DNA of 64,000 nucleotides from Thermoplasmatota archaeon (GCA_018814355.1 JAHIZT010000053.1:798-64797), one strand, 5' to 3'; counted from the stretch's first letter, positions 13,770 through 51,110 are shown. Numbers and translations: made by a program. The notes: generated from the letters alone by a model not told the origin.

Positions 13770-13827
13770 GCGAGATTGGGCACCACAGAAACCCTAATAA
13801 GCCCAAGGGCATTATGACGGAATACAA

Positions 13828-33414: not shown

Positions 33415-35838
33415 TTGATGCCAAACCCCGACGAGCCGGCCGAGAACTCCATTGCATGCCCCATATGCGGCTACCAGTCGCCAAAGGGTGCGACCAGGTG
33501 TGAACACTGCTACACTAGCCTACAGGCCGAAGAGAAGACAACGGGTGCTGGAGAGACCGAACCGGATCGCGGCCAGAACGAAGAGGGCCTTGAGGAACTC
33601 AGACTCGTTCCTGGAGTCGGCGAGGCGAAGGCCGAGACTCTGTATGAGGCTGGATACCGCTCGCTGAAGGACCTGCAGGAAGCTAGCGTCGACGAATTAT
33701 CAGCAGTGAAGGGCATCAGCGAGAAGCAGGCCGCCAAGATAATCAGGGGTGCAAACAGTCTTACGAACCCAAGCGGGGCCTCCCCGCTGGCAAACTGGCT
33801 TTCGGGAGAGGACGAGGGACTCTCCGAATGGCTTTCGGGGGAAGAGAGGGTCCAACCGGAGGCGACGGCAATGAAAGCCGACGCCCCACGGGATAATTCT
33901 CTGGCGAAATGGTTGGCTGGGGAAGAGGAGGATGTGAACGTCTGGCTTGAAGAGACCAGGGCACCTGAACCCGCTCCACAGACCATCGGACCTAACGAGG
34001 TCCTTGCAAGAGAAGCTGAATTGATCCAGCTGCGCGAGACCATGCGAGAGAAGCTTAGCCAGTTCGAATCAGGGGACTTCGACGCGCAGGCGACCATCGA
34101 AGAGCTCGCCAAGGCCAAGGGTGACCTCGAGATAGAGAGGGGCAAGGCTAGGCAGCTCGAAGAGGAACTCGAAAACGTCAAGCGTGGGAGCATTGCGGTC
34201 ATCAAGTTCATCAAGAACCAGCAGGGGTCTGAGATGGACCAGAGCACGCTCACTGACAAGCTGGCATCTGAGATGGCAAACCGGGAGAACCTCGAGCTCA
34301 AGATAATGCAGCTTGAAGAGGTCAATACGACCCTGAAGGAGGAAGTCGAGGCCGGGATTCAGGAGCTTCCTCCAGAGGCACAGGAGCTCAAGCGCAGGGA
34401 GACCGAGCTCGCGGAGATGAAGGCCCAGCTCGAAGCGATGAAGAAGCAGCTCCTGGCTAAGGAAGAGGCTCTGAGTCAGGGCATGCTGTCTGCACCCCCT
34501 GGGACTACGGTGATGATCGATGCAGGATCCGCGCAACGCGCAGAGGAGTCAGCCAGAAGGGAGCAGGAGCTGGCCGCGAGGATTCAGGAGATCGAGGGAA
34601 AGTTGGCCGAGGCGGATGTCCTGGTCAGACAGAAAGATGAGATGCTCAAGATCTCAGGCGGTTCTGCGAAGACCGTCGACAAGGAGGTCATGAGGAAGCT
34701 GGAAGACGCCCAGAGACTCGAGCGCACACTTGCGGTCAGGGATCAGGAGCTTCAGAGGGTAAGGGGGGATCTCAAGGTGAGCACGGAGGACCTCCAGAAA
34801 CTCAAGGAGCCGATGAAGTACAAGGAAGAGGAGATGCTCAGGCGTGAGGAGGACCTCATGTTCCGCGAGCGGCTGCTCCAGGAGGAGCTGAAGAAGGTCA
34901 CCCAGTCCAAGGCCGAGCTGACATCCCATGGCGAGATCGACCTTAAGAAACGCCTAGAAGTGCTCCAGGCAGAGGTCACGGCGAAGGAGGAGTCGATCAG
35001 GAACAAGGAGAAGTACCTGTCCGCCAAGGAGGAGGAGCTCAGGCTCAGGCAGCAGGGCGTGATATCCGACGAGATAGAAAAGCGCGAGCTGGACCGGATG
35101 CTCGAGGTCAAGCAGGAGAAGGTAAAGACGGGCACCGCCAGGCTCGACGACTTGCTGCTAGGTGGTATGCCGTTCGGTGCGAACGTGCTAGTCTACGGTC
35201 CTCCGTTCACTGGCAAGGAAGTGCTGCTCAACGTGTTCATCGCGGAGGGGCTCAAGAAGGGCATACCCGCGATCTGGATCCTGACAGAGAAGTCCCCAAA
35301 GGATGTTCGCGAGGAAATGACTTTCGTGGTCTCCGGATACGAAGAGTACGAGAAACTCGGGCTCGTGAGATATGTTGACGCGTATTCCAGGAGCATGGGA
35401 GATGACTCCCAGGACCCGTATGCAGAGTATGTTGAGTCTCCGACGGACTACGAATCAATCCAGAGAGCCGTGGAGACTGCCGCGAAACCGATGCGGGAGA
35501 AGCACCCGTATTATAGGGTCGGCTTCCGATCCATTTCCACGTTGATAGCGTACCTCGACCCTGGCACAGCGTTCAGGTTCCTGAGCCCTGTTGTAGGCAG
35601 GAGAAAGCGGGACAAGGCAGTTGCTATGTACACCATCGAAAAGGGCGTCCACGGTGAGCAGGAGATCCAGATGATAGGCTCACTGATGGATGGGATGATA
35701 GAGTTCAAGGTCGAGAACCTGAACACCTTCCTGGCGATCAGAGGCATCTGCGACGTTCAGTCGAGGTCTTTCATCAGATACTCCGCAACGAAGGTTGGCG
35801 TCACAATCGGTTCGTTCTCGCTGGACCACATCAGATAG
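33415..35838 (+). CDS. Multidomain protein: N-terminal zinc ribbon, (HhH)2, W-acidic repeats, ~400-aa coiled coil, C-terminal KaiC/RecA-like ATPase domain
   Basis: CPICGYQSPKGATRCEHC; HhH (LVPGVGEAKAETLYEAGY...VKGISEKQAAKII); three WL(S/A)GEE repeats; heptad-rich E/K/L region; C-terminal Walker A-like GPPFTGKE and KaiC-like fold. Confidence 0.6.
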   Translation: MMPNPDEPAENSIACPICGYQSPKGATRCEHCYTSLQAEEKTTGAGETEPDRGQNEEGLEELRLVPGVGEAKAETLYEAGYRSLKDLQEASVDELSAVKGISEKQAAKIIRGANSLTNPSGASPLANWLSGEDEGLSEWLSGEERVQPEATAMKADAPRDNSLAKWLAGEEEDVNVWLEETRAPEPAPQTIGPNEVLAREAELIQLRETMREKLSQFESGDFDAQATIEELAKAKGDLEIERGKARQLEEELENVKRGSIAVIKFIKNQQGSEMDQSTLTDKLASEMANRENLELKIMQLEEVNTTLKEEVEAGIQELPPEAQELKRRETELAEMKAQLEAMKKQLLAKEEALSQGMLSAPPGTTVMIDAGSAQRAEESARREQELAARIQEIEGKLAEADVLVRQKDEMLKISGGSAKTVDKEVMRKLEDAQRLERTLAVRDQELQRVRGDLKVSTEDLQKLKEPMKYKEEEMLRREEDLMFRERLLQEELKKVTQSKAELTSHGEIDLKKRLEVLQAEVTAKEESIRNKEKYLSAKEEELRLRQQGVISDEIEKRELDRMLEVKQEKVKTGTARLDDLLLGGMPFGANVLVYGPPFTGKEVLLNVFIAEGLKKGIPAIWILTEKSPKDVREEMTFVVSGYEEYEKLGLVRYVDAYSRSMGDDSQDPYAEYVESPTDYESIQRAVETAAKPMREKHPYYRVGFRSISTLIAYLDPGTAFRFLSPVVGRRKRDKAVAMYTIEKGVHGEQEIQMIGSLMDGMIEFKVENLNTFLAIRGICDVQSRSFIRYSATKVGVTIGSFSLDHIR

Positions 35839-35856: not shown

Positions 35857-36294
35857 TCACGCGACTTCCATCGAGCGCCCCTTGTCTTTGGCACCTGGCG
35901 CCTTCTGAGGAGGACCACCCTGAATCTGCGGCGGAGGAATAGGTGGCGGAAGTGCCAAGTCCCTGGCGCATATCACCGCGGAGGGCATGCAATTGGCATA
36001 GATGGCCGTCAGGACGGGATTGAACACCTCGCTCGGCAACACGTTCGTCTGAGACCACTGGCTGGCCAGTTGCTTGGCCTCGCCGTCCCAAACGACTCTG
36101 CCCTCGATCTTGATCATTCCAACGCCCATGTAGTTGACAGTGAATCTGAAATCGAATTGGGCATCTCTGTCCGAAATCGCACTAACGCTTGTCACGGCTG
36201 TGTTCTGATCAACCCTGAGATGAGGTATCCTCTCGCCTAGCTTGGAGTACCTCTTGGCATCTATGGAAACGAGTTCGAACGACTTGATGGGCAT
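35857..36294 (-). CDS. Hypothetical protein with Pro-rich C-terminus
   Basis: 145-aa ORF, beta-rich, followed by PPPIPPPQIQGGPPQKAPG. No family call. Confidence 0.3.
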   Translation of the reverse strand: MPIKSFELVSIDAKRYSKLGERIPHLRVDQNTAVTSVSAISDRDAQFDFRFTVNYMGVGMIKIEGRVVWDGEAKQLASQWSQTNVLPSEVFNPVLTAIYANCMPSAVICARDLALPPPIPPPQIQGGPPQKAPGAKDKGRSMEVA

Positions 36295-36409: not shown

Positions 36410-36482
36410 TGCCGTGGGCCGGACTCGAACCAGCGACTTCAAGATCTTCAGTCTTGCACTCTCCCAGCTGAGTTACCACGGC
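36410..36482 (-). tRNA. tRNA-Phe (anticodon GAA)
   Basis: Reverse-complement fold: acceptor GCCGTGG/CCACGGC, D stem ACTC/GAGT, anticodon stem CAAGA/TCTTG with loop CTGAAGA, T arm GCTGG-TTCGAGT-CCGGC. Confidence 0.85.
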
Positions 36483-36756
36483 ATCCGTGAGCAGATTGGC
36501 AGTTACGCACAACCCTATATTAAACCTTGGCGAGCGGCACTTCGTCACGGTCTGCCCGGGAGGGCTTGGCCCGAGCATTCATTGAGGCGGCAGTCTTCGA
36601 ACATTCGTCGCTGCGAGTAGTGTGCTCTCTCCGGGCGAAGTCTTCTGTCGTTTTCTCCACAATCCACATGCATTTTTGTGCGATACCAGAAACGACAGTT
36701 TTAAATATGTTCCAGTAGCTGATTAGGTTACTTCGAAACACCTGTTTGGTGGTCTG

Positions 36757-37767
36757 ATGAACTTGTCCCCCCAGCACGCGAGCTATTGTGCAGACTCGAC
36801 CGGCAACCGGATCAAGAAATCACCGCGGTGGGACAACGGCGAGGGCGTGGCCTCCACAATCGGAACAATCATGTCGCTCCTCGTTTTCTTGACGGCCTTT
36901 GGGATGTTCACGAACCAGTTCGTGCCCGTATGGATGAGCGACAACGAGAGCAGCCACATGTCAACGGTCATCCAGCAGTTCACGACGCTCAAGTCGTCCG
37001 TGGACATCAGCATCTCTTACAACTCAAACAGCAGGATAGCACCTACGCCAGTGTTCGTGCCGATCACTTTGAGCTCGGCAGGCATCCCCGTGTTTGCCGC
37101 CCCCACCGCGGGGATACTGCGATACATTCCCGAAGCGATCAATCAGAGGCCTATGTTCAACATCACCTATAGTTACATTTCCCCAACTGGCACGCCGAAC
37201 ACCTTGAGCTCGAGCAACGATGGGCACTCAGGCGGCTCGCTAGACCTCTACTGTCCCAACAGATACTTTGTCGAGCAGCACTTGGTCTACGAATCGGGCG
37301 CAGTGATCCTCAACCAAAGCGATGGTGAATTCATCATTGCCGGGCCGCAGTTCTCAGTCAGGAACGTTGGGACTGCCAGCTCCCCGGAGATTGTGGTAAT
37401 GTTGACCCAGATCTCGCTCCAGGGCCTGAACAAGACCATCGGAGGCACTGGCTCCAAGGGAGTCACTGCGGACCTGCTATATGCGGACACGACGGCATAC
37501 GAGAACAGTGCAGGATCTCAGGTTACCATCACAATCGTCTCGAACCACGGCTATGCATGGTATGAGTACTTCCTGAGCAGGCTGGACGGCACGGCCGACA
37601 TGACAATAGGTAACGGGTTCACCCTGACGAAGGCACTTCTCCCATTCCCCCCATCCCCCAACAGAATGAACAACTACTACGTGGTCACCCTGACAATAGA
37701 CAATGTACATATTCTGGACTACACGCATGCCATCGTGAAGCTCTCGATAGGGGAGCTCGGAGTATAG
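36757..37767 (+). CDS. Putative archaeal pilin-like / archaellum-accessory-like protein with class-III-type N-terminal hydrophobic segment, N-glycosylation-sequon rich
   Basis: Charged leader (NRIKKSPRWDNG) then hydrophobic helix EGVASTIGTIMSLLVFLTAFGMF; beta-rich with many N-x-S/T sequons. Lies directly upstream of the FlaI-family ATPase. Confidence 0.35.
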   Translation: MNLSPQHASYCADSTGNRIKKSPRWDNGEGVASTIGTIMSLLVFLTAFGMFTNQFVPVWMSDNESSHMSTVIQQFTTLKSSVDISISYNSNSRIAPTPVFVPITLSSAGIPVFAAPTAGILRYIPEAINQRPMFNITYSYISPTGTPNTLSSSNDGHSGGSLDLYCPNRYFVEQHLVYESGAVILNQSDGEFIIAGPQFSVRNVGTASSPEIVVMLTQISLQGLNKTIGGTGSKGVTADLLYADTTAYENSAGSQVTITIVSNHGYAWYEYFLSRLDGTADMTIGNGFTLTKALLPFPPSPNRMNNYYVVTLTIDNVHILDYTHAIVKLSIGELGV

Positions 37768-37777
37768 GAGTGATCTC

Positions 37778-39538
37778 ATGGCTGAAGCTCAACCAAAGGT
37801 AAAACACGAAATCGATGTCAAGGCCCCGCCGATGCCACTTGGCGCCAGGATATATCAGGGCTGGGTGGGAGCTGTGAGCAAACTGAAGTCGTCCCCTATC
37901 GAGATCAGGGCTCCGAGAGGCGCGGCCGCACGGAAACGCGACTGGAGCCACGGTAGGGGTTCAGTGTACACCAAGATACCGCCGATCACCGACACCGCCA
38001 TTCAAGAGATCGGGTTCTACAGCGTGGTCGAGCCGTTCAGTTACACAAGAGCGACATACAACAGCACGATCAGCGAGTACATCCTGACCAACATAGAGCC
38101 CACCCTGACCGAGGACGAGGAGGAGCTCCTCAAACTCATCAAGGAGACCCTTGAGAAGACCCTCGAGTACGAATGGGACAAGCTGGCCGTGATGGACAAC
38201 AAGACATTCCTGGAGAGGAGCGTGGACAGTTTCATCAAGTCCAGAGGCATGAGCATCGAGCCGATCTCCAAGGACAAGATCACGTACTTCATCTCGAGGG
38301 ACTTTGTGGGCTACGGGAAGATCGACGCCCTGATGAACGACAAGAACATCGAGGACGTTTCGTGCGATGGCGTGGGAATCCCGCTGTTCGTGTTCCACAA
38401 CAAGTTCGAATCCATCAAGACGAACGTGTCGTTCGAAGACGAGGACGACCTCAACTCGTTCGTGATAAACCTTGGCCAGAGATGCGGCAAACAGCTGTCC
38501 GTCTCGAACCCGATACTGGACGGCACGACACCCGAAGGGCATAGAGTCCAAGCGACATACGCAAGGGAGGTCACGACCAGGGGCGCGTCGTTCACGATAA
38601 GACGGTTCAAGGAGAAGCCCTTCACTCCCGTCGAGCTAATCAAATACGGAACGGCGTCACCCGAGATCGTTGCGTACTTGTGGCTCAGCGTTGAGCACGG
38701 CGAATCCGCAATAATATGTGGTGGGACTGCCAGCGGCAAGACGGCGACACTGAACGCAATGGCCCTATTCATACCGCCAGGCGCCAAGGTCGTCACCATG
38801 GAGGATACGAGGGAGATCAATCTGCCGCATGAGAACTGGATCCCCGGTACGACAAGGTCCGGCGTTGGTGAGCGTGGCCCGGACGGCAAGGCCGCAGGAG
38901 AGATCGACATGTACGACCTCGTCAGGGCGGCGTTGAGGCAGAGGCCAAACTACATCATCGTCGGTGAGGTCAGAGGCAAGGAGACATACACGATGTTCCA
39001 GGCGATGGCGACCGGGCACACGACGTTCTCCACGATGCACGCTGACAGCGTTAAAGGAATGGTCAACAGGCTCGAGAACCCGCCCATCAACTGTCCCAGG
39101 ATACTTCTCACGGCCCTAAGGAACGTCATCATCCAGACCCATGCGAGAGTCGGGATGGGCATGGTCAGGCGGATCAAGCAGCTCATTGAGATCGTCGGTT
39201 TCGAGCCCGAGACGAACGAGCTCATAAGCAACACCGTCTACGAGTGGGACCAGGCGTCTGACAAGTTCATATTCAAAGGCCACAGCTTCCTTTTCGACAA
39301 GATCATGGAGATGAAGAACCTGACCCACGAGGAGCTCACGCAGGAGTTCGAGCGCAGGGTCGACATCGTGAAGTACATGGTCGCGAAGGATATTGCGGAC
39401 CACCGCGAAATATGGGGTCTGATCAGGGAGTATTACAAAGACCCCAAGGCCACCGCGGAGATGGTCCGCAAGGAGCTCCACGGGGCGGCTCCCAGACCCG
39501 CGCAGGTAGTAGTTTCCGGAGGTGAGGCAACTGCCTGA
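37778..39538 (+). CDS. FlaI/ArlI-family type IV filament assembly ATPase (paralog 1)
   Basis: Strong similarity to the archaeal FlaI core: Walker A GGTASGKTATLNA, Walker B/Asp box IIVGEVRGKE, His box TFSTMHAD. Confidence 0.8.
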   Translation: MAEAQPKVKHEIDVKAPPMPLGARIYQGWVGAVSKLKSSPIEIRAPRGAAARKRDWSHGRGSVYTKIPPITDTAIQEIGFYSVVEPFSYTRATYNSTISEYILTNIEPTLTEDEEELLKLIKETLEKTLEYEWDKLAVMDNKTFLERSVDSFIKSRGMSIEPISKDKITYFISRDFVGYGKIDALMNDKNIEDVSCDGVGIPLFVFHNKFESIKTNVSFEDEDDLNSFVINLGQRCGKQLSVSNPILDGTTPEGHRVQATYAREVTTRGASFTIRRFKEKPFTPVELIKYGTASPEIVAYLWLSVEHGESAIICGGTASGKTATLNAMALFIPPGAKVVTMEDTREINLPHENWIPGTTRSGVGERGPDGKAAGEIDMYDLVRAALRQRPNYIIVGEVRGKETYTMFQAMATGHTTFSTMHADSVKGMVNRLENPPINCPRILLTALRNVIIQTHARVGMGMVRRIKQLIEIVGFEPETNELISNTVYEWDQASDKFIFKGHSFLFDKIMEMKNLTHEELTQEFERRVDIVKYMVAKDIADHREIWGLIREYYKDPKATAEMVRKELHGAAPRPAQVVVSGGEATA

Positions 39539-40559
39539 AATATCCGACGTCTTCAAGCAGGTCGAGGTCAAACCTTCTCAGTACCTCAAGACCTCGATCG
39601 CGCAGACGGGCGAGAGGCTCGGCCCGCATGCTGTAAGACTCACGAAGGGCGCTGTTCCCGAGTACATCAAACTCTCGCCGTTCCAAGACCTCGCGTGGAG
39701 GACGATGGGCAAGTACGCCAAGACGAGGACAGCCCAGCTGCAGCAGCTGGATGACTCGCTCCTGAAGGCCCACATGAAGATCAGGCCAGAGGAGTACCTG
39801 GCATATGTGTTGATGGGCACGCTCGTCTCAGCTATCATAGGCGTGGCAATCGGCATAGGCGTCGGTGTTGTCCTGTTCGGCCTCCTGGGCGTGAGCGTGG
39901 TTCTCAGAGTCGTGGTGGCGGCCCTCGCGATTGGCCTGCTACCGATAATGGCATACATGATGTTGCTCGGCTCCCCGCATTCGAAGGCGAAGAGACGCGG
40001 AAGAGACATAGAGAAGAGGATCGCCGCCGCCATGAGCTTCATCTCGGCGATGGCGTCGGCCGATGTCAACATCGATGTCATATTCAAGGAGCTGTCAAGG
40101 CAGAAGGTCTACGGAGAGATAAGCCAGGAGGCCGCGTGGATCACCAGGGACACCGAGCTGCTGGGGTCTGATATCCTTACGGCCATCAAGAAGGCTGCAA
40201 AGAGGTCCCCGTCCTCGAAGTTCCAGGACTTCCTTCAAGGCGTCATCACCACATCGACATCCGGCGGACAGCTGAAGCCGTATTTCCTGCTCAAGGCCGA
40301 GGAGTACCAGAAAGAGAACAAGCTTGCCCTCAAGTCCCAGATGGAGACCCTGGGTATGCTCGCGGAGTCGTTCGTGACCGTCGTCGTCGCGTTCCCCCTG
40401 TTCCTTGTGCTCATCCTGGCGATCATGGCCATCGTCGGCGGGGGAGACCCCCAATTCATGGTCATGATGCTCTATCTGATAGTGCTCGGGATGATCCCTG
40501 TGTCACAGTTCGGTTTCATATTCGTCATCTGGAACATGTCAAAGGAGAGTGCGATGTAG
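39522..40559 (+). CDS. TadC/FlaJ-like membrane protein, N-terminal T2SSF domain (ends at in-frame TAG)
   Basis: TM helices flank a cytoplasmic T2SSF-like domain. Ends at TAG 40557-40559, followed immediately in the same frame by ATG 40560. Confidence 0.6.
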   Translation: MRQLPEISDVFKQVEVKPSQYLKTSIAQTGERLGPHAVRLTKGAVPEYIKLSPFQDLAWRTMGKYAKTRTAQLQQLDDSLLKAHMKIRPEEYLAYVLMGTLVSAIIGVAIGIGVGVVLFGLLGVSVVLRVVVAALAIGLLPIMAYMMLLGSPHSKAKRRGRDIEKRIAAAMSFISAMASADVNIDVIFKELSRQKVYGEISQEAAWITRDTELLGSDILTAIKKAAKRSPSSKFQDFLQGVITTSTSGGQLKPYFLLKAEEYQKENKLALKSQMETLGMLAESFVTVVVAFPLFLVLILAIMAIVGGGDPQFMVMMLYLIVLGMIPVSQFGFIFVIWNMSKESAM

Positions 40560-41492
40560 ATGCCGCCTCAGAAAGCCATGAATGAGCAGGAGAGGGAGAA
40601 AGCCCTCAAACGGATACTGGCAACTGACAAGGTGGACCTGACGAAGACCCTCCTGGGCGCTTCGATGGGTGTGGCCGCGCTGTTCATATTCATGGCAATC
40701 GTGGACAACATGGGAAGCCTGAAACTCCCACTAGACCCGATCGACTGGATCATCTTCGCAATCGCGGCGATCATCGGCCCGTACGGATTCTACGCGACCA
40801 CCAGGGAGAAGCGCGTTAGGGAGATCGAGACGAGGCTGCCTGACTTCCTGAGAGATGTCGCAGAGGCCGGCAGATTCGGCATGACTCTCGCGAACGCAAT
40901 AGTCGTCGCATCGTCCGGAAGGTATGGTCGGCTGACACCAGAGATCACGAGGATGGCCGCGCAGATCGAGTGGGGCGTGCCCGCCTCCGAGGCCATCAGG
41001 CTTTTCTCCGAGAGGGTCAAGACGCCTCTGGTCACAAGAATGGCGTCCATCATCATGAAGGCCAACGACGCAGGCGGCAATGTCGCCGATGTGCTGAGCA
41101 TGGTCTCGCACGACGCAAAGGACACCATCCTGACACAGGAGGAGAGAGGCGTTACGATGCAGACCTACGTCCTGGTCGTATACATCGCCTTCTTCGTGTT
41201 CATCGCCACCATCCTGATCCTGCAGGGCCAGTTCCTTCCGAAGATGGAACAGGCAGGCAAGCAGGTCAGCGAGCAGGCGGAGAAGCAGGGCCTGGGGGAG
41301 ATACCGGGTGTGAGCATTCAGGTTGACATCATCCCTACGGTCTCGTTCATCTTCCTGCTGTCTGTGGTCGTACACGCGATAGGTGACGGTCTGCTGGCGG
41401 GAGTCATAGCGAATGGGAGCATACCGATAGGCATGAGGCACAGCTTCATAATGCTGATCGCAGGGTTCGTATCATTGAGGGTCATCGGGTGA
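40560..41492 (+). CDS. TadC/FlaJ-like membrane protein, C-terminal T2SSF domain
   Basis: Second T2SSF-like domain with TM helices. Same reading frame as 39522-40559. Confidence 0.6.
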   Translation: MPPQKAMNEQEREKALKRILATDKVDLTKTLLGASMGVAALFIFMAIVDNMGSLKLPLDPIDWIIFAIAAIIGPYGFYATTREKRVREIETRLPDFLRDVAEAGRFGMTLANAIVVASSGRYGRLTPEITRMAAQIEWGVPASEAIRLFSERVKTPLVTRMASIIMKANDAGGNVADVLSMVSHDAKDTILTQEERGVTMQTYVLVVYIAFFVFIATILILQGQFLPKMEQAGKQVSEQAEKQGLGEIPGVSIQVDIIPTVSFIFLLSVVVHAIGDGLLAGVIANGSIPIGMRHSFIMLIAGFVSLRVIG

Positions 41493-41498
41493 GTAAAG

Positions 41499-43208
41499 AT
41501 GACAGAGACTGAACAGCCCAAGATGCAAGTTGAACCTGGAACCGAGGAACCGAATGAGAAGAAGAAGGGCCCAGGCTTCATGTCGGCGTACTACAACTTC
41601 CTGCTGAAGATCAAACCGAAGCCCTTGATGATCGCCCTCCCCAAGAGCGAGACCGGCACGGACATGTCGAGGATAACGGACATCCCCAAGATTTCCGAGC
41701 CGAACGTGGACGAGGTGGAGCTACTTCCGATCAAACAGAACTACGTCTACGTGAGGATCAAGTATGACAACAAGTCCAACGAGTACCTTTACGAGGTCAT
41801 CGAGCCGAAGCTGTCCGAGGACGAACGGGATGTCCTGACGCTCCTGAAGGAGACCCTGGTCGCTTCTGTCGAGAAGATGACCGAGACGGTAGCCGAAGAG
41901 AAAGAGAAGTACCTCAGGAGGATAGTCGAGAGGCTCATGGTTCAGCTCGGGGTAACGCTCCACCCGATCTCGAAGGAGAGGGTGACTTACTACATCATCA
42001 GGGACTTCATCGGATACGGTGTGATCAACGCGATGATGTCAGACCCGAACGTGGAGGACTGCTCATGCGACGGCGTCGATGTCCCATTCTACATATACCA
42101 CAGGAAGTACGGCTCGATCAGGTCAAACCTGAGATTCGTCAAGGAGGTGGAGCTGGACGGATATGTCGTCTGGCTGGCCCAGAAGTGCGGCAAGCACATC
42201 TCTGTGGCGAGCCCGCTGCTCGATGCAACGATCCCGGACGGTTCCAGACTGCAGGCGACCCTCGGTAGGCACGTGACAAAGAGAGGATCCTCGTTCACCA
42301 TCAGGCGGTTCAAGGAGAACCCGTTCACGCCCCTCGACCTGCTCAAGTTCAAGACAATGAGCACGGAGATGATGGCGTATCTATGGATCTCGATCGAGCA
42401 CGGCCAGTCGATGCTCGTCTGCGGAGGCACTGCGAGCGGCAAGACTACTACCCTCAACGCGATCCTGCTTTTCATCCCGCCTCAGATGAAGATCGTCTCC
42501 ATCGAAGACACCAGGGAGCTCAACCTGCCCCACGAGAACTGGGTCCCGGGCCTCACGAGGGAAGGGTTCGGAGGCAAGAGCCACATCACTGGCAGGGCGT
42601 CAGGCGAGATAGACATGTTCGATCTCCTCACATCAGCCATGAGACAGAGGCCACAGTACCTGATGGTCGGTGAGGTCAGAGGCAAGGAGGCATACGTCGT
42701 CTTCCAGGCCATGGCCACCGGCAAGACCTGCTACTCAACCTTCCACGCGGAGGACGTCCAGGCGATGGTGCACAGGATGGAGAACGACCCGATCAACCTG
42801 CCAAGGGCGCTTATCACGGCACTGAACATCGTCCTACTCCAGGCACAGGTCAAGGTCGGCACCAAGATGACCAGGCGTGTGAAATCTCTTACTGAGATCG
42901 TTGGCATCGACCCTGAGACGAACGAGCTCATCACCAACTCGGTCTACACATGGAATCCCGCGGATGACAGCTTCAACTACAGCGGCCACAGCTACGTTTA
43001 CGAGAAGGTCAGGATGGCCAGGAACTGGGCCCCGAGAGAGATGGAGAGGGAGATCAAGAGGCGTGTGGACATCCTGGAGTACATGAAGAAGATCGGGATG
43101 GACAACCACAGGAAGGTCGCAACGATCATCTCTGCATATTACAAGGACCCCGAGAAGGTCATGAAGGAAGTGAGGGCAAAGCTGGCTGAGGGCGCGGAGA
43201 AGCTCTGA
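41499..43208 (+). CDS. FlaI/ArlI-family type IV filament assembly ATPase (paralog 2)
   Basis: Walker A GGTASGKTTTLNA, MVGEVRGKE, STFHAE. Roughly half identical to paralog 1 over the core. Confidence 0.8.
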   Translation: MTETEQPKMQVEPGTEEPNEKKKGPGFMSAYYNFLLKIKPKPLMIALPKSETGTDMSRITDIPKISEPNVDEVELLPIKQNYVYVRIKYDNKSNEYLYEVIEPKLSEDERDVLTLLKETLVASVEKMTETVAEEKEKYLRRIVERLMVQLGVTLHPISKERVTYYIIRDFIGYGVINAMMSDPNVEDCSCDGVDVPFYIYHRKYGSIRSNLRFVKEVELDGYVVWLAQKCGKHISVASPLLDATIPDGSRLQATLGRHVTKRGSSFTIRRFKENPFTPLDLLKFKTMSTEMMAYLWISIEHGQSMLVCGGTASGKTTTLNAILLFIPPQMKIVSIEDTRELNLPHENWVPGLTREGFGGKSHITGRASGEIDMFDLLTSAMRQRPQYLMVGEVRGKEAYVVFQAMATGKTCYSTFHAEDVQAMVHRMENDPINLPRALITALNIVLLQAQVKVGTKMTRRVKSLTEIVGIDPETNELITNSVYTWNPADDSFNYSGHSYVYEKVRMARNWAPREMEREIKRRVDILEYMKKIGMDNHRKVATIISAYYKDPEKVMKEVRAKLAEGAEKL

Positions 43209-43944
43209 GTTTGTTGATTCTGAGTATCTTCAAGACTGGGGGCGTAATCCGATTCGGGGCTATGCTCTTGTTCACGACCAGGATTTCCTGCCAGGGGACG
43301 ATGCTTCCCACCGCGCGCTCGAGCGACCAGTCTAATACTGACCGGCTGCATTCACCATCGCAGGCAGACTGGACGAAGGCCCACGTGGGCTCCTTTGGCT
43401 CTCTATTTGTTCTGGGGACCGCTCGTGATATGGGGCATTTTCGTTGCCGCCTTGATTCTGGTGGGATCTCCGATCCGGGTTAGGGTCAATGTGATGTGTG
43501 TTGCGGGGGCGGTACTCGGGATTGCTGCTGTGACTGCCGGATGGGACTTCAATACTAACACCACCTTGTGGGAGAGCTCCATGGGACTGTGGTACTTCAT
43601 CATAGCATCATAGCTCGCCTTGTTGACGCCTCTCTAGCCGGCCTAGGACGGGCGCTCAGCCTAGCAATCGATCTGAACTTCGCCCACCTGTACGGATATG
43701 ATATCTCAGGTGACGGGTATATGATCGCCTTCGTCTCCGCGGCGACAGTGATCCTCAGAATGGCGCTCCCGGTCTTTGTGGGACACCGGGGAGACTGGTT
43801 TCAGATGACGATTCGTGATCGACTGCTGACCGTTCGAGCGAGGGGGCTGCACCTGACCGGGAAGCCATCGACCTAGGGCCCTGCCAGAACAAAGGGAAAT
43901 GAAAAGCGTATAAGGGGTTTACTGGGTTTGGAGGCTCGAAAGGA

Positions 43945-46900
43945 CTACTGGTTCTCGTCCTCTTCGCCTGACCCGGTCTCTTTCTCCTCGCCGCTCACGG
44001 GCGTCTTGATGATCTTCTTGGGCACGACCTTTCGGTCTATCGGCCTTCTGATGACCATCCTGGGCGCCATTGCCGGAGGCACCTGCTGAGCCTGTGTGCC
44101 GCCTCTCTCCTCCGTCAGAGGCGCCCCCTCGACCGCCCTCTCCTCGGGCGGCGCCGCGGGTGGCAGGCCCTTCTTTGGCGGTGCTACTGCTGGCTTGACC
44201 GCCCCGAACACGGTGCCGCACTTGTGGCACACGTTCGCTTCCTTCGGGTTCAGCGTGCCACAGACCGGGCACGGGACCGGGCCCTCCTTCTTCTTCTCCT
44301 CTTCCCTGGCGAGCCAGTCGTCGAAGCTGATGTACCCAGGCTGCGCCATCCACCAGGCCTCGAATGCCTTCTCGCTGAACTTCTTGCCTAGCTCGGGCTT
44401 CGCGAGCTCGCGGTACTTGGAGACGATCTCATCGTACTCCTTCCTCATGCGCTCGAGGTAGTCGGCCTCCACTTCGGTCTCGCCCGCGAACTTCACGCCA
44501 CAGTTCGGGCACTCGGTCGATTCAGCAGGTATCCACGCGCCGCACTCGGAGCACTTCATCGTGCCAGCTTCGAACTCGACACCACACTTCGGGCATCTCT
44601 TGCTCGCGGCCGGTATGAACGCGCCGCACTCGCCGCACTCCACGAGTTTACCAAGACCATATATATAAGTGTACACGGTGAAGCCAGCAACAACGCCAAC
44701 AACAGCGACGATGATGAGTACCCAGACCCACCACGGGAACAATCCGCCCGAGACTTGTGCGCTCACATGGATCGTGGTCGCGCTGTCATAATCGGAGTCG
44801 AGGATCACGGCCCTGACGGTGTATGTACCAGTGTCAAGAGATGGCGGTATTCTCAGGAGGACGATTATGCTTCCGTCCAGGCTCGTCGTCTCAACGGTGC
44901 TGTTCGAGTCCGGCACAAGCTCGCCGGAAGAGTCGACCAGCCAGAACACAACTCCTGGCAGACTCTTGACAGGGTCACTCATGCCGGCGTAAGTCACCGT
45001 CGCACTGATGACCATCATATCGCCAGCATTGTATTCGGCGAAGTCACTAATGATCACCACATCGACTAGCAGCTGCGTTATGTTGAAGGGTGCTACAGCG
45101 AAGTTGTTGGCCTCGTTCGGCTCTGCTATCGATCCCGGCCCATCAAGCCAGACCCAGATCTCGTAAGCGCCTGGAGTTGTCAGGTTGATCGGCCACAGGA
45201 CCGTGACCAGGAGCGTGTTCTCCGTCGCGTTCGAGGAGATGTTGTAGTTCGCTTTCGTGTGGATGGTGTGGTTATAGCCTGCGCCCCTGACGCCGATCTC
45301 CACCTGGAAGGCATCTACCCGCCTTCCTCCAAGGTCCCTGACAAGGGCTCGGACGTTGACCTGGTGACCGAATACATCGCTCGTTACGTTGGTCGTGCCG
45401 CGCTGCACATAGATGTCCGAAGACACGATGGACAGGTCCGGCCTGACATCGGTCACGGCAATGATGATAGTCTGCTCATTGTTCATGTAGTTCGTTTCCA
45501 CTTGGTCATGGCCCTCGTTGACCCTCATCACTAGGGTCACATCAGTCCGAACCGTCACTGTCGGAGACGTGAAGGTCTGTGTCACCTCGAGAGATCCGCT
45601 AGCGGCCGAGAGAGACACGCCAGAGACATCCCAGGGTATCGGAGCTATCGACCCGCCGGCCCATGTGACATAGAGAACCAGGTTTGGATTGACGAACGGT
45701 GCTGCGTTCAGGTTCTGCAACTGCGCTCTTACCGTTACGGTCTCTCCTCCTGGCACAGCGATAGCTGGGGTCGTCTCGATTGAGGACAGCAGCAGATCTG
45801 GGTGGTCGTACACCATTATCTGGATGCTATCATGGTTGTTTAGAGGATCCATTTCCTCGTAACCGCCCATTAGAGTAGCCACAACCTCAATCGTGTGTTG
45901 CACTCCAGGATTCGCTGGATTCCATGGAACAGATGCCAATATGGATCCACCGGGCGTAATTCCCGTGATGTTGTCCGATCCGACGTACGCACCATCATCG
46001 AAGAAGTCGACCTGAACCAAGGTGCTCACGTTGTTTCCGTCATTGTAGATTCTCGCCTGTAGGTCGCACGCCGTCCCAACGATCACGAAGTCGATGGACG
46101 CCTTGATGGATGGATTGAGGGGTGATCCCGCACTGACCCTGATGTCCGGAAGGCTCTTGATGGTCAAGATGCCAGATGCGATCGCGGGCGTAGCATCATT
46201 TATCTCGCGGATCACGTTGAGCCTGTCTGCCACAACTAGGAATGTGTGACTGTTCGGGTCGACCTGCCCCGATGCGGTCCAGCTGGCACTCGCAACTCCG
46301 GACAAGCCTGCCATGATCACCGGTATGCTCGTCGTGGCGAACAGTTCGTTGTTATCTACATCTGGAATGCCATTCTTGTTGAAGTCGTCGAAGAACTCGA
46401 CAGCAACTTTGTAGGCGCTCGCAACACCAGTGTTGTTTATCCTTCCATATATCCAAACAGTCTCCCCCATCCTCAGGTGCGTGATGGAGACGCCTGTTGC
46501 GTTTAAAGCCCAAACAGGTGTGTAACCCTGGTTCACGCTGAGGTCGCATAGAGCGGCTGGAATCGTCATTGTGGCATAGGTTGCGTTCCTGCCGAGCGGC
46601 TTCTCATAGGGCTTGACGCTCAGGGAGATTTCCGAATCTCCCGAAGAATTGTCAGCATAGTATGGCTGTCCCGCAACTGCAGGATATGTGTACGTAGCAT
46701 TGACCCAGTAGTTCCCCACGAAGGTGGAACCGATGGAAGTCAGTCTCGTGCCAAGCGAATTGACCTTGGCAACTCCGAGTGATTCTGGCGCGGCGCTGCT
46801 CATCGCCCATCCGGCTGGGACCTGGCTGACATATGATCTTGTGGATACGTTCACGCCTGGCAGAGGCATTCCTGCCCCATCGAGGACAGTCACATGGATC

Positions 46901-49206
46901 CATCTGTAGATCAGTGCTACAGCGTCGTCAGTAACCTCGATTGCGGGTACACTCGTGTTCGTGAACCCTGCCTCAACACTACCGGAGAGTTCCGGTATCT
47001 GGCTAAGGTCAGAATCCTTGATGGAGATCTTCTTGGTCCATGAATCCCAGGCCGTCGTGATCTTGCCATCCATCACCACATTGGAGAACAATATGGTCGC
47101 GTTCTCTTCGATGACAATGTTCACGCCTTCCATAACGGAGTCAACGACCTCTAGTATCCCGTCTCCCCTGACAACAATGTTGATCGGATACTGGCTTGTG
47201 ACTCTTGATTTCTGGAACAGCAGTTTCGCAGGGGAGGCGGCGGTTCCGTCGACATAGATCGTCTTCGTGTATGAGCCAGGCGGTACCAGCTGGAATACCG
47301 AGTTCGTGAAACTCAGTGTGCCTCCAGCGGCGACAATGACATCTCCTGCATGGTAGTATGTCATGTTCTTGATGTCAAGAGATGGAGGGACGACCAACCA
47401 TCTGGAGGGATCAGGGCTGGGCGCAGAGAGACCTATTATCGAAACAGTGACATCGAAGCTCTGATCAGCGTGGGTCATGGCAGGGTAAGCGGGGAAGGAG
47501 AATGCCTCCGTAGATTTGAATGATCCATTTACTCCTGTGATGTCGTAGGAACCTACAAACCTCGAGTCCATTGATCCACTGCCTGTGATGATGTCGGTGA
47601 GATAGGGTATTGTGGCCTTTCCGTCACTCTTCGTCATCGAATAGGTCAAAGCCGTCTCACCCATATAGGCAAGAATCTCGGAAGGGGGCGTCGTTGACAC
47701 ACTCCTCGGAGCGTAGTATATTGCCTGCAGACCCTCTAACTCGGTCGCGCCAGTGAAGTTGGCTAAGACATTGGAGTTGGATGTGGGGACGCCGTATTCA
47801 TCACCGATTGTTGTATTGAGCCATCTGTAGATGAAGGCGTCAGCTCCAACAGTGAACATTATCCAGATACGATCGAATTCGACGAAGCCTGCTCCAGGCC
47901 CATTCACGAATCTCATGTTCATGTTTCTGACATCGCCAACAGTCGCTATCGTCGACAACGGGAGATTGTAAAGTCTCTCAGTGCCTGGTGGATCGGTGTT
48001 GACAGGTACAATCGACGTATCAGAATACGCACTACCTTGCCTTGCCCACTGAACATGCGCCGTTCCGCTGTAAGCTGGGGCGACGGCATATGTCGCCACA
48101 AGCGTGGCTGAGCTTACTGGAAGGGCATCAGAAAGACCGCTCACGTCCCATGTGTCGATTTCGAGGGTTTGTGTCGGCAAGACCTGAATAGTCCCTCCAT
48201 CCACAACCGCGAGGTTCGTCAAGGATCCCGAAGTACTATCAGCGAGCCCTCTCGTTAGGGGGACTGCTGGCGATGCACTAGCTCCAGATGCCATGATGGC
48301 TGGGGCTCTGTCGGCTAGGGCTCCCGTGTATGTCTGGAAACTAGCTCCGTAGAAGTATGCATGAGACATGTCGTTGATTACTATCGCATTATGCACATGC
48401 CAATCCGCCGCAACTCGAGTTGGTCCGAAATCGACGCTGATATAGCTGTTGACGGCCAGAAGCGTCGACTCACCGTTCAGGGTCAAATTGCTCGCGGACA
48501 CGAGGTCAGTAGCATACTCAGGAAGGTCGAATATGGACGAATCATAGAGCTCCAGGGTCGAGTCGTTCAGGGTGATTGCAGGACCGTCATCGGCCGAGTC
48601 GAAGGTTATCGCGCCGCTCGATCCGATCACATACTGTGCGACCAGCGTCGGCGGGAGCGCCATGATCTCAGTGTCCGTCAGGCTGACGTTCGCGTCCGTT
48701 CTCAGGATGATGTTCCCTGGGAACATGAGCAACGAGTTGTTGGTCGCAATGAGCTTACCGCCATCCTGGACAGTGATGTTCAGGAACGGCCATGGGTTGA
48801 TCTGGTCCAGGTAGGCAGTGATGGTACCATGGTCCAGGACGAGCTTGCCGCCCGCGAAGACAGTGATACTGTGCTTCAGGTTAGGATTGTTGTTGCTGAT
48901 GATGCTCATGGTCGCGTCCCTGATGATCAGCTCTCCGCCGACTCGAACTTCGACATTGCCGTCGATCGGCTGTTCGATGTTCTCTATGGTATACGTTCCG
49001 TTCTGAACGATCAGGTCGCCCGCGGCGGCTCTCGTGGGCGTCATATCGGCCATGAACAGAAGGCCCGCGAAGGCGGAAATCACAAGACACACGACGGCCA
49101 AAGCACTCAACGTTCTATTGGCAACTAGCTTGTCAGCTTTGCCTTTCATAAAGTTCACCCACCCAGGATGCTGGGTACTGCGGGAAGAAGTAAGCAGGTC
49201 AGCCAT
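43945..49206 (-). CDS. Giant (1753 aa) cell-surface protein: N-terminal signal anchor, beta-helix-like and CARDB-like repeat ectodomain, C-terminal TM helix and cytoplasmic tail with three zinc ribbons
   Basis: N-terminal hydrophobic segment; hundreds of N-x-S/T sequons; CARDB-like motifs (EPNEANNF, DPLNNHDS); TM LFPWWVWVLIIVAVVGVVAGFTVYTYIYG; tail CGECGAF...CPKCG, CSECG...CPNCG, CPVCG...CHKCG; Lys/Pro-rich end. Confidence 0.6.
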   Translation of the reverse strand: MADLLTSSRSTQHPGWVNFMKGKADKLVANRTLSALAVVCLVISAFAGLLFMADMTPTRAAAGDLIVQNGTYTIENIEQPIDGNVEVRVGGELIIRDATMSIISNNNPNLKHSITVFAGGKLVLDHGTITAYLDQINPWPFLNITVQDGGKLIATNNSLLMFPGNIILRTDANVSLTDTEIMALPPTLVAQYVIGSSGAITFDSADDGPAITLNDSTLELYDSSIFDLPEYATDLVSASNLTLNGESTLLAVNSYISVDFGPTRVAADWHVHNAIVINDMSHAYFYGASFQTYTGALADRAPAIMASGASASPAVPLTRGLADSTSGSLTNLAVVDGGTIQVLPTQTLEIDTWDVSGLSDALPVSSATLVATYAVAPAYSGTAHVQWARQGSAYSDTSIVPVNTDPPGTERLYNLPLSTIATVGDVRNMNMRFVNGPGAGFVEFDRIWIMFTVGADAFIYRWLNTTIGDEYGVPTSNSNVLANFTGATELEGLQAIYYAPRSVSTTPPSEILAYMGETALTYSMTKSDGKATIPYLTDIITGSGSMDSRFVGSYDITGVNGSFKSTEAFSFPAYPAMTHADQSFDVTVSIIGLSAPSPDPSRWLVVPPSLDIKNMTYYHAGDVIVAAGGTLSFTNSVFQLVPPGSYTKTIYVDGTAASPAKLLFQKSRVTSQYPINIVVRGDGILEVVDSVMEGVNIVIEENATILFSNVVMDGKITTAWDSWTKKISIKDSDLSQIPELSGSVEAGFTNTSVPAIEVTDDAVALIYRWIHVTVLDGAGMPLPGVNVSTRSYVSQVPAGWAMSSAAPESLGVAKVNSLGTRLTSIGSTFVGNYWVNATYTYPAVAGQPYYADNSSGDSEISLSVKPYEKPLGRNATYATMTIPAALCDLSVNQGYTPVWALNATGVSITHLRMGETVWIYGRINNTGVASAYKVAVEFFDDFNKNGIPDVDNNELFATTSIPVIMAGLSGVASASWTASGQVDPNSHTFLVVADRLNVIREINDATPAIASGILTIKSLPDIRVSAGSPLNPSIKASIDFVIVGTACDLQARIYNDGNNVSTLVQVDFFDDGAYVGSDNITGITPGGSILASVPWNPANPGVQHTIEVVATLMGGYEEMDPLNNHDSIQIMVYDHPDLLLSSIETTPAIAVPGGETVTVRAQLQNLNAAPFVNPNLVLYVTWAGGSIAPIPWDVSGVSLSAASGSLEVTQTFTSPTVTVRTDVTLVMRVNEGHDQVETNYMNNEQTIIIAVTDVRPDLSIVSSDIYVQRGTTNVTSDVFGHQVNVRALVRDLGGRRVDAFQVEIGVRGAGYNHTIHTKANYNISSNATENTLLVTVLWPINLTTPGAYEIWVWLDGPGSIAEPNEANNFAVAPFNITQLLVDVVIISDFAEYNAGDMMVISATVTYAGMSDPVKSLPGVVFWLVDSSGELVPDSNSTVETTSLDGSIIVLLRIPPSLDTGTYTVRAVILDSDYDSATTIHVSAQVSGGLFPWWVWVLIIVAVVGVVAGFTVYTYIYGLGKLVECGECGAFIPAASKRCPKCGVEFEAGTMKCSECGAWIPAESTECPNCGVKFAGETEVEADYLERMRKEYDEIVSKYRELAKPELGKKFSEKAFEAWWMAQPGYISFDDWLAREEEKKKEGPVPCPVCGTLNPKEANVCHKCGTVFGAVKPAVAPPKKGLPPAAPPEERAVEGAPLTEERGGTQAQQVPPAMAPRMVIRRPIDRKVVPKKIIKTPVSGEEKETGSGEEDENQ

Positions 49207-49262: not shown

Positions 49263-50279
49263 CTAGACCACTTTCTTCTTCACGATTTTCTTGACGAAAA
49301 TCTGAGGTTTCCTGAGCAAGCCCGACTTCTCGCCTTCATCTGCTGACTCTATCTTCTCTTCCAACTTCGCGAGCGCGTCCTTGATGTTCGCGCCACAGGC
49401 GTAGCACATGAGCGCATCCGTGCTCACCATAGTCTTGCAGTTGGGGCACGCGATCTCGTCCTCGGATGCTTCCTCCTCGGGGACTGTCTCGGGCTGGGCG
49501 ACCTCCTCCTCCCTGATCTTCTGACCACAGGCGTAGCACATGACCGCGTCCTTGCTTATGACCGTCCTGCAGTTCGGGCACTGCATCTCGTCCTCGCTCA
49601 GGTTGGCAGGCGCCTCGGACTCTTCCGTCCTGACCGGCGGGACGAGGAAACCTTTCGCGAGCATATCCTTCTGCTTGTCCAGGAGCTTACGAGCGTCCTC
49701 TGACAGTTTCTCTCGGTCTCTCCTGATGGTCTCTTCCTCCTCAGCGAGAGACCTCTCTCTCGCAACGAGAGCGTCGCGTCGGGACGTTATCTGCTCGAGC
49801 AACCTCTGAGCCTCCTCCTCCGACTTCTTGAGGAGCTCTTCCCGGTCAAGGAGGCTCTTGCGCCTGTCGGAAAGCTCTGACTGATGCTTGCTGATGTCCG
49901 CCAGTTGGTCCTGGGCGTCCTTCTCCCTTGCCTCAGCCGCGTTCATGGTGGCCTTGGCGGTCGCTTCCAACTTGGACATCTCAGCGCTCTTCCCCTCGAC
50001 CTGTGATGCCTTCTCCTGAACGGCGGTCTCGCGCTTCTTCAGTTCTTCTGACTTCTGGTCGAGCGAGGATTCCTTCTGTCTCATGGAATCCTCCTTCTCT
50101 CTCAGACGCTGCTCGAGGGTGTCGAGCTCGGACTTCTGCTTCTGGACATCCTCAGTCTGGGCCTTCAGCTCGAGGTCCCTCTTTCTGACCTCTGCCTCCT
50201 GCGTCTTGAGCCTCTTGACGGCATCTTCTATGATGTCCGAGATAGTCGGGTCCTTCTGGTCCTTCTGGTCCTCTGGCAT
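49263..50279 (-). CDS. Coiled-coil protein with two C-terminal zinc ribbons
   Basis: About 230 aa E/K/L-rich heptad region, then CPNCRT...CYACG and CPNCKT...CYACG. Confidence 0.5.
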   Translation of the reverse strand: MPEDQKDQKDPTISDIIEDAVKRLKTQEAEVRKRDLELKAQTEDVQKQKSELDTLEQRLREKEDSMRQKESSLDQKSEELKKRETAVQEKASQVEGKSAEMSKLEATAKATMNAAEAREKDAQDQLADISKHQSELSDRRKSLLDREELLKKSEEEAQRLLEQITSRRDALVARERSLAEEEETIRRDREKLSEDARKLLDKQKDMLAKGFLVPPVRTEESEAPANLSEDEMQCPNCRTVISKDAVMCYACGQKIREEEVAQPETVPEEEASEDEIACPNCKTMVSTDALMCYACGANIKDALAKLEEKIESADEGEKSGLLRKPQIFVKKIVKKKVV

Positions 50280-50393: not shown

Positions 50394-51110
50394 TCAGGGC
50401 GCGCTGAGCAATGGCCCGAGCACCTGAATGCCGTTCCTGCCCACCTCGATCGCGTGTCTCTCCATTGAGTGCTCCGCAGCCCGCATCTTCTCAACCTGGA
50501 GGAACCTCATGAGCTTTCCGCGCTGCCTGTCGAGTCCAAGGTGCATTATGCCGTCCGCCAGGAAACCCTCGTTGCCGAGCAGCTGCGACTCGCCAGTGAG
50601 CGAGCGCTCCATGATGATGAACGCAGTCAGGTTGTTGTCCCTGAGCATCTTGAAGAAATAGAACATCTTCTTCCTCATGTCCTGGACGTTCTCCATGAGG
50701 GAGTACAGAGCACCCAATGAGTCGAGCACGAATATCGAGAACTTGTCTCCGTGGGTCTTCCTGAACCTCTGGATCATCTTCTCGATGAACAGGACGTAGT
50801 CGGTCTGCGCATCCTGGCCTATGACCTCGTCGATCTGGTCGATCTCCCTAAGGTCCGTCAGGTCGGAGATCTGCATCTTCATGGAAAGCTTCGCCCCGAT
50901 GCTCTCCATGTTCTTCAGGTGGCTGTCGGCCGTCTCCTCGAGTGTGGCGTACAGCCCGAATTCGTTCTTGTCCCTCAGGTACTGGGACATGAGGGTGTAG
51001 CAGAAGGTTGTCTTCATCGATCCCGGAGGACCTGTGACGAGTATCACCTTGGGCCTGTCCACGTCGTTCTTGAAGACCTTTTCCAAGCCTGGTATAGAAT
51101 CCTTGAACAC
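50394..51110 (-). CDS. KaiC/RecA-superfamily ATPase, ArlH(FlaH)-like single-domain
   Basis: About 235 aa KaiC-like fold with an atypical Walker A (VTGPPGSMKTTF, Met in place of the second Gly) and Walker B FVLD. Confidence 0.6.
   Translation of the reverse strand: MFKDSIPGLEKVFKNDVDRPKVILVTGPPGSMKTTFCYTLMSQYLRDKNEFGLYATLEETADSHLKNMESIGAKLSMKMQISDLTDLREIDQIDEVIGQDAQTDYVLFIEKMIQRFRKTHGDKFSIFVLDSLGALYSLMENVQDMRKKMFYFFKMLRDNNLTAFIIMERSLTGESQLLGNEGFLADGIMHLGLDRQRGKLMRFLQVEKMRAAEHSMERHAIEVGRNGIQVLGPLLSAP

Follow-up and report, generated by a model that had tools for sequence, protein, structure and literature searches.

The 64,000-nucleotide (nt) stretch of a Thermoplasmatota archaeon analysed here (GCA_018814355.1, JAHIZT010000053.1:798-64797; hereafter the window) carries at 36757-43208 five consecutive genes, namely those for a pilin-like protein (PIL) and for two secretion ATPases (A1 and A2), between which lie the two genes of a TadC/FlaJ-type membrane platform, one for its N half (TN) and one for its C half (TC; Table 1). 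We consider it probable that these genes constitute one type IV pilus assembly operon with a split platform, in which both ATPases are working motors that divide the labour between them. A survey in which one genome per species was scanned, and gene order was taken from open reading frame (ORF) calls and BLAST, yielded 80 species-level loci, of which 60 have sufficient flanks; among these 60, the genes are arranged in the order PIL-A1-TN-TC-A2 in 55, the remaining five differing only in that no PIL was recognisable. All 80 loci come from Thermoplasmata, bear labels of Thermoplasmata type (Thermoplasmatota, Methanomassiliicoccales, Methanomassiliicoccus or Methanomethylophilaceae) or are unclassified, and across species the genes for A1 and A2 co-occur strictly one-to-one within the same operon. 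The closest proteins are those of uncultured Thermoplasmata, including a 100% identical NCBI entry from 'Candidatus Thermoplasmatota archaeon' and the relatives RBG_19FT_COMBO_56_21 and UBA10834.

The five genes had been proposed by a sequence-only reading of the window, and ORFs were found at exactly the positions that it gave, all on the plus strand. Since the distances between PIL, A1, TN, TC and A2 are 10, -17, 0 and 6 nt, the five genes are almost certainly one transcription unit.

Both ATPases match the T2SSE family (Pfam; E 5.6e-33 for A1 and 3.4e-32 for A2), align with each other end to end with 47% identity over 571 residues, and carry the same Walker A (GGTASGKT), Asp box (EDTRE) and Walker B (VGEVRG) motifs besides a His box. 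These four motifs are intact in 81 A1, 62 A2 and six Thermoplasmatales sequences, and both copies are under strong purifying selection. Identity of the orthologues to the window proteins is 58-96% for A1 and 60-90% for A2, against 47% for the paralogue pair; because orthologues are so much closer than paralogues, the duplication that gave rise to A1 and A2 is ancient and not a recent tandem copy, and the proposal that the operon holds two distinct paralogues, rather than recent tandem duplicates, is thus upheld. The nearest relative of solved structure is GspE of Archaeoglobus fulgidus (afGspE; 2OAP, E 4.6e-125), followed by FlaI of Sulfolobus (1.9e-81) and CpaF (2.1e-41), and the family models for PilB and GspE score both proteins far under their cut-offs.

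A trivial origin of the pattern, by recent tandem duplication, by a frameshift in a platform gene or by decay of an archaellum operon, could be suspected from the fact that FlaI is the best-scoring NCBIfam model for both ATPases and that their relatives are annotated in the source as 'flagellar protein FlaI'. The identities given above exclude a recent tandem duplication, and a frameshifted platform gene is excluded by the split itself, which is kept in about 80 species. As to a degraded archaellum operon, the FlaI equivalog NF058587 gives 420.4 bits for A1 and 432.4 bits for A2, below its cut-off of 550, afGspE rather than FlaI is the nearest solved relative, and neither an archaellin nor ArlC-H genes lie nearby. 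Pfam and NCBIfam scans of the neighbouring genes detected no archaellin or FlaC-G genes within about 10 kb of the operon, in agreement with the earlier statement that no archaellin (FlaB) or FlaC-G gene is adjacent and that this is not a standard archaellum operon. Explanations of this trivial kind therefore carry practically no weight.

The platform is encoded in two genes. The T2SSF domain (Pfam) was detected in TN (E 1.1e-13) and in TC (E 2e-16), and when compared with ArlJ/FlaJ models TN aligned to positions 5-246 of 555, in the N half, and TC to positions 193-450 of 465 and 263-536 of 555, in the C half. The same assignment of TN and TC holds for platforms of the UpsF and AapF type. Hydrophobic segments are located at 91-152 and 276-339 of TN and are also present in TC. 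Because the two proteins correspond to distinct halves of the model and show no resemblance to each other in BLASTP, they are two halves of one platform and not two copies, so the TadC/FlaJ gene is genuinely split, as had been read from the sequence. In one Thermoplasmatales locus (L086, 10001-11617) the platform N half has about 250 amino acids (aa) extra at its N terminus, and in two single-ATPase systems (L087, 11474-13369, and L090, 10855-12609) the C halves have about 350 aa extra N-terminally.

Systems of this kind with a single ATPase, which are also found in Thermoplasmata, have a TN-like and a TC-like gene after the ATPase gene and KaiC-like genes in the vicinity; their ATPase shares about 50% identity with A1 and likewise with A2. 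Given that these systems have both the split platform and the KaiC link, the two features either pre-date the two-ATPase layout or are shared with it, and what distinguishes the two-ATPase arrangement is the extra motor. Furthermore, because the single-ATPase relatives also have one TN-like and one TC-like gene, the pair in the window represents one platform and not two. The single-ATPase pilus locus of HGW-Thermoplasmata-1 (L087, 1-13369) is preceded by three KaiC-like ATPase genes and a gene for a Roadblock/LC7 protein; one of the KaiC-like genes runs off the end of the locus and another encodes a fusion with a small Ras/Arf-like GTPase domain, and by analogy these upstream genes resemble an MglA/MglB-style polarity module placed beside a pilus machine.

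A two-ATPase operon with the same order has been published for Cuniculiplasma divulgatum, in which the CdiP machinery operon, cdiPE1-cdiPFa-cdiPFb-cdiPE2, encodes two ATPases and a platform split into an N half and a C half (ISME J 2025, PMC12448462). The authors, who also reported the structure of the CdiP pilus, described the two ATPases as unique among archaeal operons, raised the analogy with PilB/PilT, and observed no twitching of C. divulgatum under the conditions tested (PMC12448462). Over nearly their full length, TN of the window shares 35% identity with CdiPFa and TC shares 29% with CdiPFb, the CdiPFa,b sequences having been recovered by optical character recognition (OCR) from the supplement of PMC12448462; for the ATPases, a Cuniculiplasma-like metagenome locus, 88% identical to the OCR-recovered CdiPFa, was compared in place of the C. 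divulgatum proteins. The order ATPase-TN-TC-ATPase is present in a Cuniculiplasma-like locus (L084), in Caldiplasma sukawensis (L085), in a Thermoplasmatales locus (L086) and in an unclassified Joint Genome Institute metagenome contig from a hot environment (L088), and in all four the first ATPase scores higher in bits against A1 and the last against A2, the Thermoplasmatales ATPases having only about 41-45% identity to the window proteins. In a neighbour-joining tree of A1, A2 and the Thermoplasmatales ATPases with 150 database representatives, A1 and the first Thermoplasmatales ATPase were grouped in 70 of 100 bootstraps, A2 and the second one in only 26, which is weak, and A1 and A2 were sisters, to the exclusion of a clade of single-ATPase Thermoplasmata systems, in only 11.

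CdiP and the window system are therefore alike in having two secretion ATPases per operon and platform genes for an N half and a C half, in the same order and in the same class, Thermoplasmata. They are unlike in that the window belongs to a different order of Thermoplasmata, its operon begins with a pilin-like gene that was not found adjoining the Thermoplasmatales operons, and a KaiC fusion linked to the operon and a giant CARDB protein are encoded nearby. The window operon appears to be a more distant member of the CdiP kind of system, in another order of the same class, and its platform halves and A1 are likely orthologues of their counterparts there. Taken alone it is probably an orthologue of a described system and not a new kind of system, and the layout, which the sequence-only reading had called unusual, is both published for C. 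divulgatum and general among the surveyed Thermoplasmata loci. The same reading had allowed that the locus might be a fragment of a pilus operon known from close relatives; with regard to CdiP this is so in spirit.

The two-ATPase operon is mentioned neither in the 2016 census of archaeal pili nor in a 2026 preprint survey. According to the 2016 census, the Methanomassiliicoccus genomes in its set lack secretion ATPases, a statement which may explain why the layout was missed. The full two-ATPase operon is present in two environmental metagenome-assembled genomes of Methanomassiliicoccus sp. (L025 and L027), and host-associated Methanomassiliicoccus lineages may have lost it.

Among the database relatives of the pilus ATPases, NCBI annotates one from Thermoplasmata (P0177, 806 aa) as DnaA, and many of those of about 1000-1300 aa (P0224-P0312) have interruptions at three recurrent sites, around A1 residues 273, 320 and 412, a pattern that would be expected for inteins. 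Most of the representatives with two ATPase stretches are intein-interrupted in this way, the true tandem fusions of two or three copies being P0186, P0253 and P0297; the two of these that have a source name are bacterial CpaF-type proteins, and P0186 has no source name.

To compare the rates of evolution of the four machinery proteins we used a distance-correlation (mirror-tree) test with partial correlations over 48 species. The mean pairwise distance was 0.452 for A1 and 0.444 for A2, that is, the two ATPases evolve at the same slow rate, and the partial rate correlation between them (0.73) was the highest of all pairs. The correlation between TN and TC was 0.48, and those between ATPases and platform halves were 0.05 for A1-TN, 0.27 for A1-TC, 0.18 for A2-TN and 0.26 for A2-TC, with no signal of a pairing of A1 with TN and of A2 with TC.

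One explanation of such co-variation is that A1 and A2 assemble into one mixed hexameric ring (for example 3+3) and thus form a single heteromeric motor. This would account for their strict one-to-one co-occurrence in one operon, for their near-identical rates and top-ranking partial correlation, and for their identical domain layout with intact motifs, and the fused tandem secretion ATPases P0186, P0253 and P0297 indicate that two or three copies per assembly are physically possible. However, the named fusions are bacterial CpaF-type proteins that are only about 29-35% identical to A1, paralogues can co-vary in rate without being in contact, and the genes for A1 and A2 stand at opposite ends of the operon instead of being adjacent. 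We know of no heteromeric ring demonstrated in the secretion ATPase superfamily. We consider a mixed ring rather unlikely, while regarding it as the foremost of the alternatives.

A second possibility is that the two ATPases are an extension and retraction couple that evolved independently, as an archaeal analogue of PilB/PilT. It would be in keeping with two distinct motors that have intact motifs, diverged anciently and are placed on one platform, and a two-gene platform would fit with what was reportedly found by Takhar et al. in 2013, namely that the two cytoplasmic domains of bacterial PilC are linked to PilB and PilT, respectively. Nevertheless, the PilT model TIGR01420 gives A1 only 49.4 and A2 only 43.2 bits, against a cut-off of 319, neither protein has an AIRNLIRE-like motif, and both are full-length with a complete N-terminal domain, unlike the short PilT form, so that a PilT homologue can be discarded. 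In addition, the pairing of A1 with TN and of A2 with TC that such a couple might leave in the rates is not seen, and one ATPase suffices for the retraction of the Aap pili of Sulfolobus and of bacterial Tad pili. The extension/retraction logic of PilB/PilT, proposed from the gene order in the sequence-only reading and raised as an analogy by the Cuniculiplasma authors (PMC12448462), thus finds nothing specific in its support, the two ATPases having the same full-length architecture and C. divulgatum, a relative, showing no twitching under the conditions tested. Antagonism of the PilB/PilT type is possible, but as an account of this operon it is improbable, more so than a mixed ring.

The operon could also be viewed as two independent machines (A1 with TN, and TC with A2, each built on a homodimer of half-platforms), or as one in which one of the ATPases exports another substrate, for example the CARDB protein encoded downstream. 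The mirror-like gene order, in which each half adjoins an ATPase, and the large adhesin-like genes that are common beside such loci agree with these two variants. They are at odds with the correspondence of TN to the N-terminal and of TC to the C-terminal half of a single platform, the two proteins not being same-half paralogues, with the single-ATPase relatives, which carry both halves, and with the TN-TC partial correlation, which exceeds that of either half with its adjacent ATPase; the CARDB protein, moreover, has no class III signal. We regard both variants as very unlikely.

We favour, then, one machine with two motors. TN and TC would form a heterodimeric membrane platform, on which prepilins encoded elsewhere in the genome would be processed and polymerised into an adhesive pilus, and PIL would act as a minor pilin or as a priming or anchoring subunit. 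A1 and A2 would both be motors of this machine, docking in turn under the platform and splitting the labour, for example between initiation and elongation or between polymerisation and depolymerisation, and the linked KaiC-like fusion would modulate pilus assembly. Pilus formation from pilins encoded elsewhere takes place in Cuniculiplasma, and pili-like appendages have been described on Methanomassiliicoccus luminyensis CZDD1. The least certain step of this explanation is how the two ATPases share the work.

Several points weigh against this explanation. The division of labour is a conjectural step, and the co-variation of A1 and A2 fits a mixed ring equally well, or could only reflect a like response of same-family paralogues to lineage effects. 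No small major pilin of the PilA/CdiPB type and no prepilin peptidase were detected in the 64-kb window, the structural homologue search found no solved structure that resembles the head of PIL, and a hidden Markov model (HMM) search did not find PIL adjoining the Thermoplasmatales operons. Even in C. divulgatum the CdiP operon was assigned by homology (PMC12448462), and the orthology of A2 with the second Thermoplasmatales ATPase appears weak, based as it is on bit scores and on the 26 bootstraps mentioned above.

The first gene of the operon encodes a protein with an N terminus of class III type, in which a basic leader is followed by the sequence ...DNGEG/VASTIGTIMSLLVFL, where the slash marks the predicted cleavage site. 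The signal, ...RWDNGEG/VASTIGTIMSLLVFLTAFGMF, combines the charged leader, the glycine at position -1 and the hydrophobic stretch of a type IV pilin signal, and in a FlaFind-like scan it was the sole class-III-type signal of the window. Cleavage is predicted after G30 (EG/VASTIG), presumably through processing by a prepilin peptidase. A single transmembrane (TM) segment is predicted, and in the AlphaFold2 model, built from 44 homologues taken from protein-search hits, a 60-residue N-terminal helix (28-88) is followed by a beta-rich head, with a mean predicted local distance difference test score (pLDDT) of 71. The motif GVASTVGTIMALLVFL...YVPVWMxDNE is strongly conserved across 70 PIL orthologues, the match to DUF7289 (Pfam) is weak (21.5 bits, cut-off 27), and the PIL HMM matches a Pilin_N protein that adjoins a related ATPase. 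The gene had been called pilin-like and heavily sequon-decorated: the signal and the helix agree with the former, but five N-X-S/T sites were observed where 4.2 are expected from composition, which disagrees with the latter. PIL probably serves as a minor pilin or as a component associated with the platform. By description it can be likened to the large minor pilin with a class III signal that is the signature of Clade 2 pili (arCOG02911), as it fits the size range (about 250-550 aa), the FlaFind-type signal and the beta-rich content. In the metagenome contig L088 the gene for a PIL homologue (12989-13837; hmmsearch E 7e-35) follows that for A2 rather than preceding that for A1, and therefore PIL travels with the module without a fixed position.

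When compared with the archaellum (ArlI/ArlJ/ArlH), the window system has ATPase and platform proteins of the same superfamilies, with FlaI as the top NCBIfam model, but ArlJ is encoded by one gene, archaellin and ArlC-H genes are missing from the neighbourhood, and neither the ATPases nor the KaiC-like proteins reach the cut-offs of the FlaI and FlaH models. A platform in two half-size genes is likewise found in system 1, represented by the Epd pilus of Methanococcus maripaludis, and in the bacterial Tad system (TadB/TadC), but these have a single ATPase, which in Tad is bifunctional and drives both extension and retraction; the Tad ATPase CpaF is a solved relative of the window ATPases (E 2.1e-41), though much more distant than afGspE and FlaI. 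Bacterial PilB/PilT(/PilU) systems offer the analogy of more than one hexameric secretion ATPase per platform, but PilT is without the N-terminal domain and has signature motifs, while A1 and A2 have a full-length architecture in common. The pilT gene is usually encoded away from pilB-pilC. Clade 2 or system 2 pili, such as Haloferax volcanii PilB3-PilC3 and the system of afGspE (2OAP), are alike in their type of ATPase, in line with the match at E 4.6e-125 and with the PilB3_C domain (Pfam, cut-off 27), for which A2 scores above the cut-off (34.9 bits) and A1 just below it (24.6 bits). They have one ATPase per locus, unlike the window with two, and their platform is a single gene according to the 2026 survey. 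Clade 2 loci often contain two tadC-like genes, KaiC-family neighbours, large 'minor pilins' with class III signals and adhesin-like genes, and the association of the KaiC family with them has already been noted (PMC4858521).

Table 1. Coordinates of the pilus operon, its candidate promoter elements and other features of the window.
Feature	Position	Strand	Length	Description
PIL	36757-37767	+	336 aa	Pilin-like, class-III-type signal
A1	37778-39538	+	586 aa	Secretion (T2SSE/VirB11-type) ATPase, paralogue 1
TN	39522-40559	+	345 aa	TadC/FlaJ/PilC-type platform, N half; one T2SSF domain and TM segments
TC	40560-41492	+	310 aa	Platform, C half; one T2SSF domain and TM segments
A2	41499-43208	+	569 aa	Secretion ATPase, paralogue 2
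Candidate archaeal TATA box	36700-36707	+		TTTAAATA, about 50 nt upstream of PIL; putative, read from the sequence
Shine-Dalgarno-like element	36748-36752	+		GGTGG, shortly before the PIL ATG; putative, read from the sequence
KaiC fusion	33415-35838	+	807 aa	Zinc ribbon, helix-hairpin-helix, long coiled coil, KaiC-like (DUF7504) domain; Pfam KaiC, DUF7504, HHH_5
p145	35857-36294	-	145 aa	No Pfam/NCBIfam match; almost always travels with the KaiC fusion
tRNA gene	36410-36482	-		Between the p145 gene and the pilus operon
Small ORFs	43211-43483 and 43568-43876			In the interval between A2 and the CARDB gene; no family match, not conserved in relatives
CARDB surface protein	43945-49206	-	1753 aa	N-terminal signal/anchor, CARDB repeats, C-terminal TM segment, cytoplasmic zinc ribbons (Pfam CARDB, DZR)
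Coiled-coil double zinc-ribbon protein	49263-50279	-	338 aa	Pfam Zn_ribbon_3, DZR; syntenic with the CARDB gene
KaiC-like ATPase	50394-51110	-	238 aa	Single domain; Pfam KaiC, E 4.4e-35
DnaA-domain protein	58633-60813	+	726 aa	Bacterial-type DnaA ATPase domain (E 1.8e-48), Hda lid, C-terminal DUF835 (E 1.9e-26)

Among the neighbours of the operon, the KaiC fusion lies upstream of it in 27 of the 51 loci whose upstream flank reaches 5 kb or more, and in three loci (L057, L058 and L061) it is found directly downstream of A2. Since the relocated gene still adjoins the module in these three loci, the KaiC fusion is probably linked to it in function, and the suggestion that this protein may be a partner of the operon agrees with its synteny in many relatives. 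Next to a related system with one ATPase, a 243-aa KaiC is encoded that shares 40% identity with the C-terminal domain of the fusion. The Walker A of the fusion reads GPPFTGKE (residues ~585-592), with glutamate replacing the usual threonine or serine after the lysine, and the KaiC-like domain may bind nucleotide but not hydrolyse it. Of the same 51 loci, 26 carry the gene for p145 and 27 that for the KaiC fusion, and p145 accompanies the fusion across Methanomassiliicoccales-like lineages; its single-sequence AlphaFold2 model, with a pLDDT of 53, is too poor to use.

On the other side, a homologue of the CARDB gene is found downstream in 26 of the 33 loci whose downstream flank is 9 kb or longer. 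The N terminus of the CARDB protein is an ordinary hydrophobic segment and not a class III signal, and the protein is a candidate adhesin or envelope protein. The genes for the zinc-ribbon and CARDB proteins occur together in 15 related loci (for example L009, L012, L015, L021, L045, L046, L053 and L074), and the gene for the 238-aa KaiC-like ATPase accompanies both in L011, L045, L046 and L074, its linkage to the module being weaker; in L045 all three are on the same strand, upstream of PIL. Past these genes the window contains gyrase and housekeeping genes. The 238-aa protein had been taken for an ArlH-type ATPase, an identity that is ruled out by the FlaH model, which gives it 26 bits, and 34 bits to the other of the two KaiC-like proteins, against a cut-off of 194; among solved structures KaiC and PH0186, and not FlaH, match it best, and it is a generic relative of KaiC with one domain.

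The usual description of archaeal pili and of archaella is that of machines with one motor, and whether archaea use a dedicated second motor is the question on which this operon bears. What is added here is the breadth and the age of the two-motor design, which is found in 55 of 60 loci, relatives of methanogens from gut and soil among them, so that the question shifts from the spare ATPase of one species to the role of a conserved two-motor design. We suggest, only tentatively, that already before the Thermoplasmata orders separated A1 and A2 were a functionally differentiated pair of motors on one split platform, and that they have been retained together since, either as an independently evolved extension/retraction couple or as an obligate ring of both proteins. 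If true, a differentiated pair in either form would be the first for archaeal type IV filaments, and the presence of the module in Methanomassiliicoccales and in the culturable Cuniculiplasma makes this directly testable.

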